A program made the position numbers. A stretch of DNA of 64,000 nt from Escherichia coli (GTDB lineage Bacteria > Pseudomonadota > Gammaproteobacteria > Enterobacterales > Enterobacteriaceae), in NCBI RefSeq assembly GCF_050920415.1, contig NZ_CP169309.1; one strand, written 5' to 3'. Positions 63,301 through 64,000 of the stretch are shown one piece after another (position 1 is the first letter of the stretch; the number at the start of each line of letters is the position of its first letter).

Positions 63301-64000
63301 CATCCTGTTGCTCCTGCGCTCGTGTGCGGCGCTGAAATCGTAGATTTTTGCTGTATTGCTCATAACTACCTGCCTTGACGAAAGACCTTAAGAACATCGT
63401 TAAACTGACTTACGGATATGTCTTCTTTGAGAAGCTTTTCCAGAAATGCGTTTGGAATGAACGTATATCCCTCCTCTTTTGGTAGAGACGGGAGCAACGC
63501 CCTCGCCTCAGCCTTCAGAAGCTCAGTTCTGGCAACTTTCACAAAAGAGATTTGAGTTCTTTCATCAATGGAACGAAGGAAGCGCAAACGCTTAGCTTCT
63601 TTGTGTGTATCAGGTGGATTAAAGCCTTTGTTTCGCATATAATTACCTCGTTGGATGTTGTTAAAATTCCATTTGTATTTGATCAGAACGCTCGGTTGCC
63701 GCCGGGCGTTTTTTATTGGTGAGAATCGAAGCAACTTGTCGTGCCAATCGAGCCATGTCGTCGTCAACGACGCCCCATTCAAGAACAGCAAGCAGCATTG
63801 AGAACTTTGGAATCCAATCCCTCTTCCACCTGCTGATCTGCGACTTATCAACTCCCACAGCTTCCGCTGTCTTCTCAGTTCCAAGCATTGCGATTTTGTT
63901 AAGCAACGCACTCTCGATTCTTAGAGCCTCGTTGCGTTTGTTTGCACGAACCATATGTAAGTATTTCCTTAACAAATAAGAAGTTATGCGCATCAACTTA

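Follow-up and report, generated by a model that had tools for sequence, protein, structure and literature searches.

The oop RNA of bacteriophage lambda is an antisense transcript that converges on the 3' end of cII, which it overlaps by 55 nt (PMC3349717). Its mechanism in lambda has been summarised previously (PMC3985674, PMC5869508, PMC2327240), and a LexA site in lambda oop-pO has also been cited (PMC5869508). Convergent firing of the oop promoter, pO, lowers rightward read-through from pR and affects replication in lambda, and oop was reported not to change the stability of the O-P mRNA (PMC3985674). OOP-type transcripts have been detected in P22 (63 nt) and, at the same position, in BTP1, and reviews list OOP for lambda and the Stx phages (PMC5488031, PMC12197685).

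The arrangement in P22 consists of a cII-type gene, antisense oop, a small ORF under the oop promoter, an O-like gene with origin repeats, and a 458-aa DnaB-like helicase. The P22 record (NC_002371) places the oop terminator at 32277-32319c and the oop promoter, which covers the orf48 start (32349), at 32346-32374c. Similarly, the HK633 record has a feature labelled 'similar to lambda oop', with a small ORF between it and O.

Here a 64,000-nucleotide stretch of an Escherichia coli contig (NZ_CP169309.1), hereafter the window, was compared with these systems. Its right end very probably carries the oop gene (pO, OOP antisense RNA, and the terminator tO) of a CUS-3-like lambdoid prophage, as judged from sequence comparison. 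With its commonest genomic layout, this oop is an ordinary, if unannotated, example of a textbook element.

Prophage context and gene order

The early-right operon of a lambdoid prophage forms the right end of the window on the minus strand (Table 1) and shares the P22 arrangement described above. The prophage takes up roughly the right 27 kb of the window. A Moco (molybdenum cofactor) riboswitch (RF01055, 103 bits) at 22832-22976 (-) marks the left part as host chromosome, presumably the moa region; no tRNA gene was found anywhere in the window.

Table 1. Coordinates of features at the right end of the window.
Feature	Position	Strand	Description
cII	63954-63661	-	97 aa, lambda-type allele; Pfam Phage_CII 5e-48
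orf90	63638-63366	-	90 aa, function unknown; PHROG 2519 at 1.9e-57
O-like replication initiator	63363-62416	-	315 aa from the probable start; Pfam Phage_rep_O 3.6e-15, PHROG 345; internal iteron-like repeats
DnaB-like replicative helicase, P22 gp12 type	62419-61043	-	458 aa; Pfam DnaB_C 1.2e-77
Candidate pO -35, TGGATT	63615-63620	+	3/6 vs TTGACA; 17 nt before the -10; orf90 codons 7-8
Putative pO -10, TATAAT	63638-63643	+	6/6 consensus; positional homologue of lambda CATAAT
Predicted OOP antisense RNA	63650-63715	+	about 66 nt; start from the -10 and homology to lambda +1
tO intrinsic terminator	63685-63717	+	12-pair stem 63685-63712, loop UGCC, U run to 63717
oop cassette	63631-63723		93 bp; -10 through terminator plus 6 nt

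The terminal 701 bp (63300-64000) shared 99.3% identity with CUS-3, a P22-like Lederbergvirus, and with phages JEP4, Gally, and HF4s. Of 5426 complete E. coli genomes, 277 contained a 201-bp segment around the locus at a coverage of at least 80%. Among the matches listed, RefSeq annotates only CII and a hypothetical protein beneath the E. coli sequences, and no RNA gene. A search through orf90 homologues of 71-80% identity yielded eight diverged relatives from Salmonella, Scandinavium, and metagenomes. The order of cII, a small ORF, an O-like initiator with internal repeats, and a helicase was common to the window and these relatives, all of which contain cII, orf90, and the O-like gene with a cII-orf90 spacer of 22-23 nt (22 nt in the window).

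Homology to lambda (J02459) extends over 63668-63971. The first-pass annotation had described the 3' part of oop and its terminator as nearly identical to lambda, and alignment with lambda bears this out, with 43 of 46 positions identical at 63672-63717 (+) and 36 of 37 in the terminator part (63681-63717). Conservation is nevertheless not special to the terminator, as the entire cII gene is identical to lambda at 295 of 304 nt (~97%); the near-identity of the terminator reflects the lambda-type cII allele of this phage. The homology fades over the last eight codons of cII, mostly at synonymous sites, and stops at the stop codon. The 5' 22 nt of the predicted RNA have diverged from lambda, with only nine alignable positions, seven of them identical.

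The gene that follows cII was compared across 80 viral contigs with the same cII allele. The position was occupied by orf90 in about 40 loci, by a P22 orf48-type gene in 21, and by an HK97 gp53-type gene in nine, the remainder including a 214-aa protein, an HNH protein, and a 47-aa ORF. Lambda-type O directly after cII was found in only about nine. Across these loci (L004-L083) the HNH protein is 266 aa long, and there are at least six alternative genes besides direct O. An additional small gene separating cII from the replication gene is thus a common layout that is already documented: lambda is the exception in having no ORF in this slot (PMC3349717), and in P22 the annotated oop promoter covers the orf48 start. 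The unusualness implied for the locus on first reading is not sustained by these distributions. At least seven unrelated genes follow cII, and CATAAT or TATAAT overlaps the start codon every time.

Promoter, predicted RNA, and terminator

The promoter had been expected to lie inside or next to the gene after cII, and the candidate pO is positioned accordingly. The -10 hexamer begins at the base complementary to the A in the orf90 ATG (63636-63638, complement strand), and the -35 position falls within orf90 codons. The lambda -10, CATAAT, is placed likewise over the O start codon, while the -35 of the window is drawn from a different gene and differs from the lambda TTGAGT. Between the -10 and G63650 lie the six nucleotides TACCTC. 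The -10 was invariant at all six positions in 10 of 10 diverged sequences, an invariance to which constraint on the orf90 ribosome-binding spacer and start codon may contribute. The candidate -35 had no invariant position among the six in the relatives (mean identity 0.63).

An extended -10 is absent from the candidate pO, and a consensus promoter scan reported no promoter there. The tool demands at least four of six matches per hexamer, which accounts for the scan result; TGGATT-17-TATAAT was recovered by manual and scripted inspection. A position-blind count of perfect TATAAT with at least 3/6 matches at the -35 returned 13 occurrences on both strands of the window. Since the motif by itself is not significant, the pO call rests on position, homology, and conservation. 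No LexA box with two or fewer core mismatches was found in 63560-63700, in contrast to lambda, which has the LexA-like box CTGT-N8-CCAG.

The 3' end of the predicted RNA was taken from the homologous 3' end of lambda oop. The interval first proposed, 63633-63709, presumed the 77-nt length of lambda OOP and truncated the U run, and the RNA likely spans the interval in Table 1. Its first 11 nt (63650-63660) are antisense to the cII-orf90 spacer and the remaining 55 nt (63661-63715) to the last 18 codons and stop codon of cII, so that the window reproduces the strand, the convergence on the cII 3' end, and the 55-nt overlap of lambda. The predicted RNA is shorter than that of lambda, in which 22 nt lie outside cII and cleavage sites have been mapped outside cII. 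Furthermore, the 5' hairpin of lambda OOP has 10-11 bp, whereas the window RNA can form only a weak 4+2 bp stem. A conserved 5' hairpin was rejected for the window RNA, as this stem is broken in locus L027 and other relatives. The strong 5' stem-loop appears to be a trait of lambda and not of the OOP family.

The terminator folds on the plus strand at -17.2 kcal/mol (z -4.2), with none of 200 shuffled sequences as good, and at only -10.2 kcal/mol on the opposite strand, where three G.U pairs turn into A.C mismatches. In the alignment of relatives, mean identity was 0.73 in the intergenic 5' part of the RNA, 0.91 in the terminator, and 0.44 just past it. Within 10 sequences, 95% of the cells of the terminator stem were paired and two pairs had changed in a compensatory way (GC<->UA; AU/UA/GC). 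The covariation score of the stem was 0.18, compared with 0.079+/-0.021 for shuffled alignments (0/500 as high) and at most 0.10 for slid controls. These values point to structural selection on the terminator stem. The terminator of P22 is unrelated in sequence to that of the window because it belongs to the c1 allele.

Short ORFs crossing the RNA on the plus strand (63552-63722 and 63655-63801) have no Shine-Dalgarno sequence and continue past the terminator. A search against Rfam gave no match in the window at E<=1; the lambda oop used as a control was equally missed, and the result is therefore uninformative.

By analogy with lambda, RNA polymerase would start at pO near G63650 on the plus strand, converging on the pR transcript. 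The intrinsic terminator within the cII 3' end would halt it, and an RNA of about 66 nt would result. On the cII-orf90-O mRNA this RNA would be complementary to the final 55 nt of the cII coding sequence, and pairing would lead to RNase III-dependent decay of the cII message, lower CII levels, and a bias to lytic growth. Read-through into the replication genes may also be reduced when pO fires against pR.

orf90 and the O-like gene

The gene of about 90 aa and unknown function noted after cII corresponds to orf90, whose stop codon is followed 2 nt later by the O-like gene. On sequence grounds orf90 is a real, conserved gene, with 34 homologues, down to 71% identity, that are all enterobacterial and differ by conservative substitutions. 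Searches of its product against Pfam, NCBIfam, and PDB profiles gave no match. An AlphaFold (AF2) model was all-helical with a pLDDT of 57.8, too poor for a fold search.

The slot ORF of P22, orf48, belongs to a different family from orf90. A relationship between the two was considered and rejected, as the weak N-terminal resemblance was not significant (E=0.087). In phi24B (L085, HM208303) the 162 nt between cII and O (2256-2417) are unannotated. They include the oop cassette together with a 47-aa ORF (MRKTQENKRVNHRKDVLRDQF...) that is similar to P22 orf48 in the N-terminal half of the latter. Residues 12-21 of orf48, the 47-aa ORF, and orf90 show a weak common motif, H(K/R)xxxxRxxF.

For the O-like gene, RefSeq and the gene callers use as start an internal ATG (MENQKTG...) that lies 62 nt after orf90 (L089, ExPEC XM RefSeq). 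Twenty upstream in-frame codons at 63303-63363 (-), encoding M(S/N)NTAKVYDFSAAHxRRSxR, are conserved in 8 of 8 diverged relatives. Since these codons are in frame and conserved, the true start is probably the ATG at 63363. Repeats with a 12-bp period, (T/A)TCATGTGCGG, form two clusters inside the O-like gene (62806-62855 and 62887-62936) and encode HEAAQTTAH-type repeats. They are probably the iterons of the phage replication origin, as in the lambda ori within O.

Antisense to the O-like start, 63338-63385 (+) contains TCGTAG-17-CATAAC, homologous to the lambda pO (TTGAGT-17-CATAAT) and the oop 5' end. This resemblance is explained by the O-like N-terminus, MSNTAKI, which matches the MTNTAKI of lambda O. 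orf90 is thus flanked by two diverged copies of one linker. The second pO-like site (63338-63366) was rejected as an active promoter: its CATAAC is without the critical last T, and the relatives have CATCGC.

A short oop variant at a mosaic junction

The oop of the window differs in its 5' half from that of lambda. The -10 lies 53 nt upstream of the conserved AGAACGC at the terminator start in the lambda-like form (type A), and 41-42 nt upstream in the window-like form (type B). The published 33-bp pO-oop consensus ACTGGATCaATCcACAGGAGTaATTATGaCAAA (Hayes 2012) had no match in the window at up to three mismatches, while 36 of the 89 comparison loci, lambda, P22, L, and HK633 among them, matched it exactly. 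The window instead carries a diverged version of the region that is 11 nt shorter.

The type B cassette was present in 67 phage records and annotated as oop in none of them. Its carriers comprise CUS-3, JEP4, HF4s, Gally, Kapi1, Min27, phi24B, phiXuzhou21, and about 55 Stx2a phages. Over 63622-63690 the window is ~98.6-100% identical to about 55 Stx2a phages, Min27, and phiXuzhou21, and homology to Stx2a phages spans a region from 62300 or below to 63723. These Shiga-toxin phages, phi24B included, carry another cII allele (~42% protein identity), and their terminator loop is 3 nt longer than that of the window. The oop of the window is itself chimeric, combining a lambda-type 3' half with an Stx-phage-type 5' half.

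The window and phi24B have the 93-bp cassette alone in common, with 92 of 93 positions identical apart from a 3-nt loop indel, and both flanks are unrelated. The common block starts 7 nt before the -10 hexamer, leaving the candidate -35 outside it, and extends 6 nt beyond the U run. On these sequence boundaries the cassette looks like a transcription unit doubling as a mosaic junction.

Such a junction could also be read as a conserved linker for homologous exchange between the immunity/cII and replication modules, with the RNA incidental. Mosaic junctions at both edges of the block, the chimeric oop, and the diverged second linker copy at the orf90/O-like junction are all consistent with an exchange role. 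In Sf6, the junction of cII and the next gene is labelled 'bsq5; boundary sequence' in the record, the same location and apparent mosaic-junction role as the block in the window, and the 33-bp region has been traced to 'sequence 5' of the HK620 comparison (Hayes 2012, PMC3349717). An exchange role is, however, compatible with an RNA gene, not exclusive of one; it leaves the stem covariation, the strand-asymmetric fold, and the U run unexplained, and the edges of the conserved block are those of the transcription unit, making an incidental RNA improbable. It is likewise improbable that the locus is a silent relic in which the hairpin and T run are kept as cII coding sequence and recombination linker, the TATAAT is an AT-rich ribosome-binding spacer, and no functional RNA is made. 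The terminator identity indeed needs no special cause in a cII gene so similar to lambda overall, the -35 matches the consensus poorly and is not conserved, the consensus scan reported no promoter, and TATAAT-type sites are not rare. Yet the stem shows compensatory changes, the fold asymmetry favours the antisense strand, and the -10 is retained before at least seven different genes. Moreover, the C-terminal tail of CII is reported to be dispensable for CII activity (PMC3349717), yet the tail DNA is conserved across cII alleles with only ~42% protein identity, and homologous RNAs have been detected in P22 and BTP1.

The first-pass annotation had also raised the possibility that the RNA regulates a different neighbour. 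A main role of OOP in the translation or mRNA of orf90, rather than in cII, appears very unlikely, because 55 of the 66 nt of the predicted RNA lie within cII and none is antisense to the orf90 coding sequence. The -10 does overlap the orf90 start codon, 1 nt separates the RNA 5' end from the Shine-Dalgarno sequence of orf90, a duplex at this point could reach into the ribosome footprint, and convergent pO firing cuts pR read-through in lambda (PMC3985674). Nevertheless, the RNA 5' end abuts the Shine-Dalgarno of orf90 (-12 from the ATG) as that of lambda abuts the Shine-Dalgarno of O (-11), and O-P mRNA stability is reportedly unaltered by oop in lambda (PMC3985674). Given this matching geometry, any effect on orf90 would be one that lambda oop could have on O. 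Furthermore, the same cassette precedes unrelated genes, orf90 in the window and the 47-aa ORF in phi24B. An OOP RNA directed at cII is thus the preferred reading of the locus.

That type B represents a functionally distinct OOP, with synthesis, degradation, and cleavage unlike those of lambda OOP and the ability to set a different lysis-lysogeny bias in Stx2a phages, while also moving as a portable 93-bp unit at which the immunity and replication modules cross over, is a tentative proposal and on balance an unlikely one. With a consensus -10 and without the LexA-like box, type B would be SOS-independent, and its weak 5' stem, with only 11 nt outside cII, suggests that RNA stability and cleavage may differ from lambda.

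The significance of this locus beyond annotation is small. As oop is missing from Rfam, and none of the 67 phage records with the type B cassette annotates it, genome scans are likely to keep finding it anew. If the type B variant behaves differently from lambda OOP, it could, speculatively, bear on the induction of Stx2a phages.
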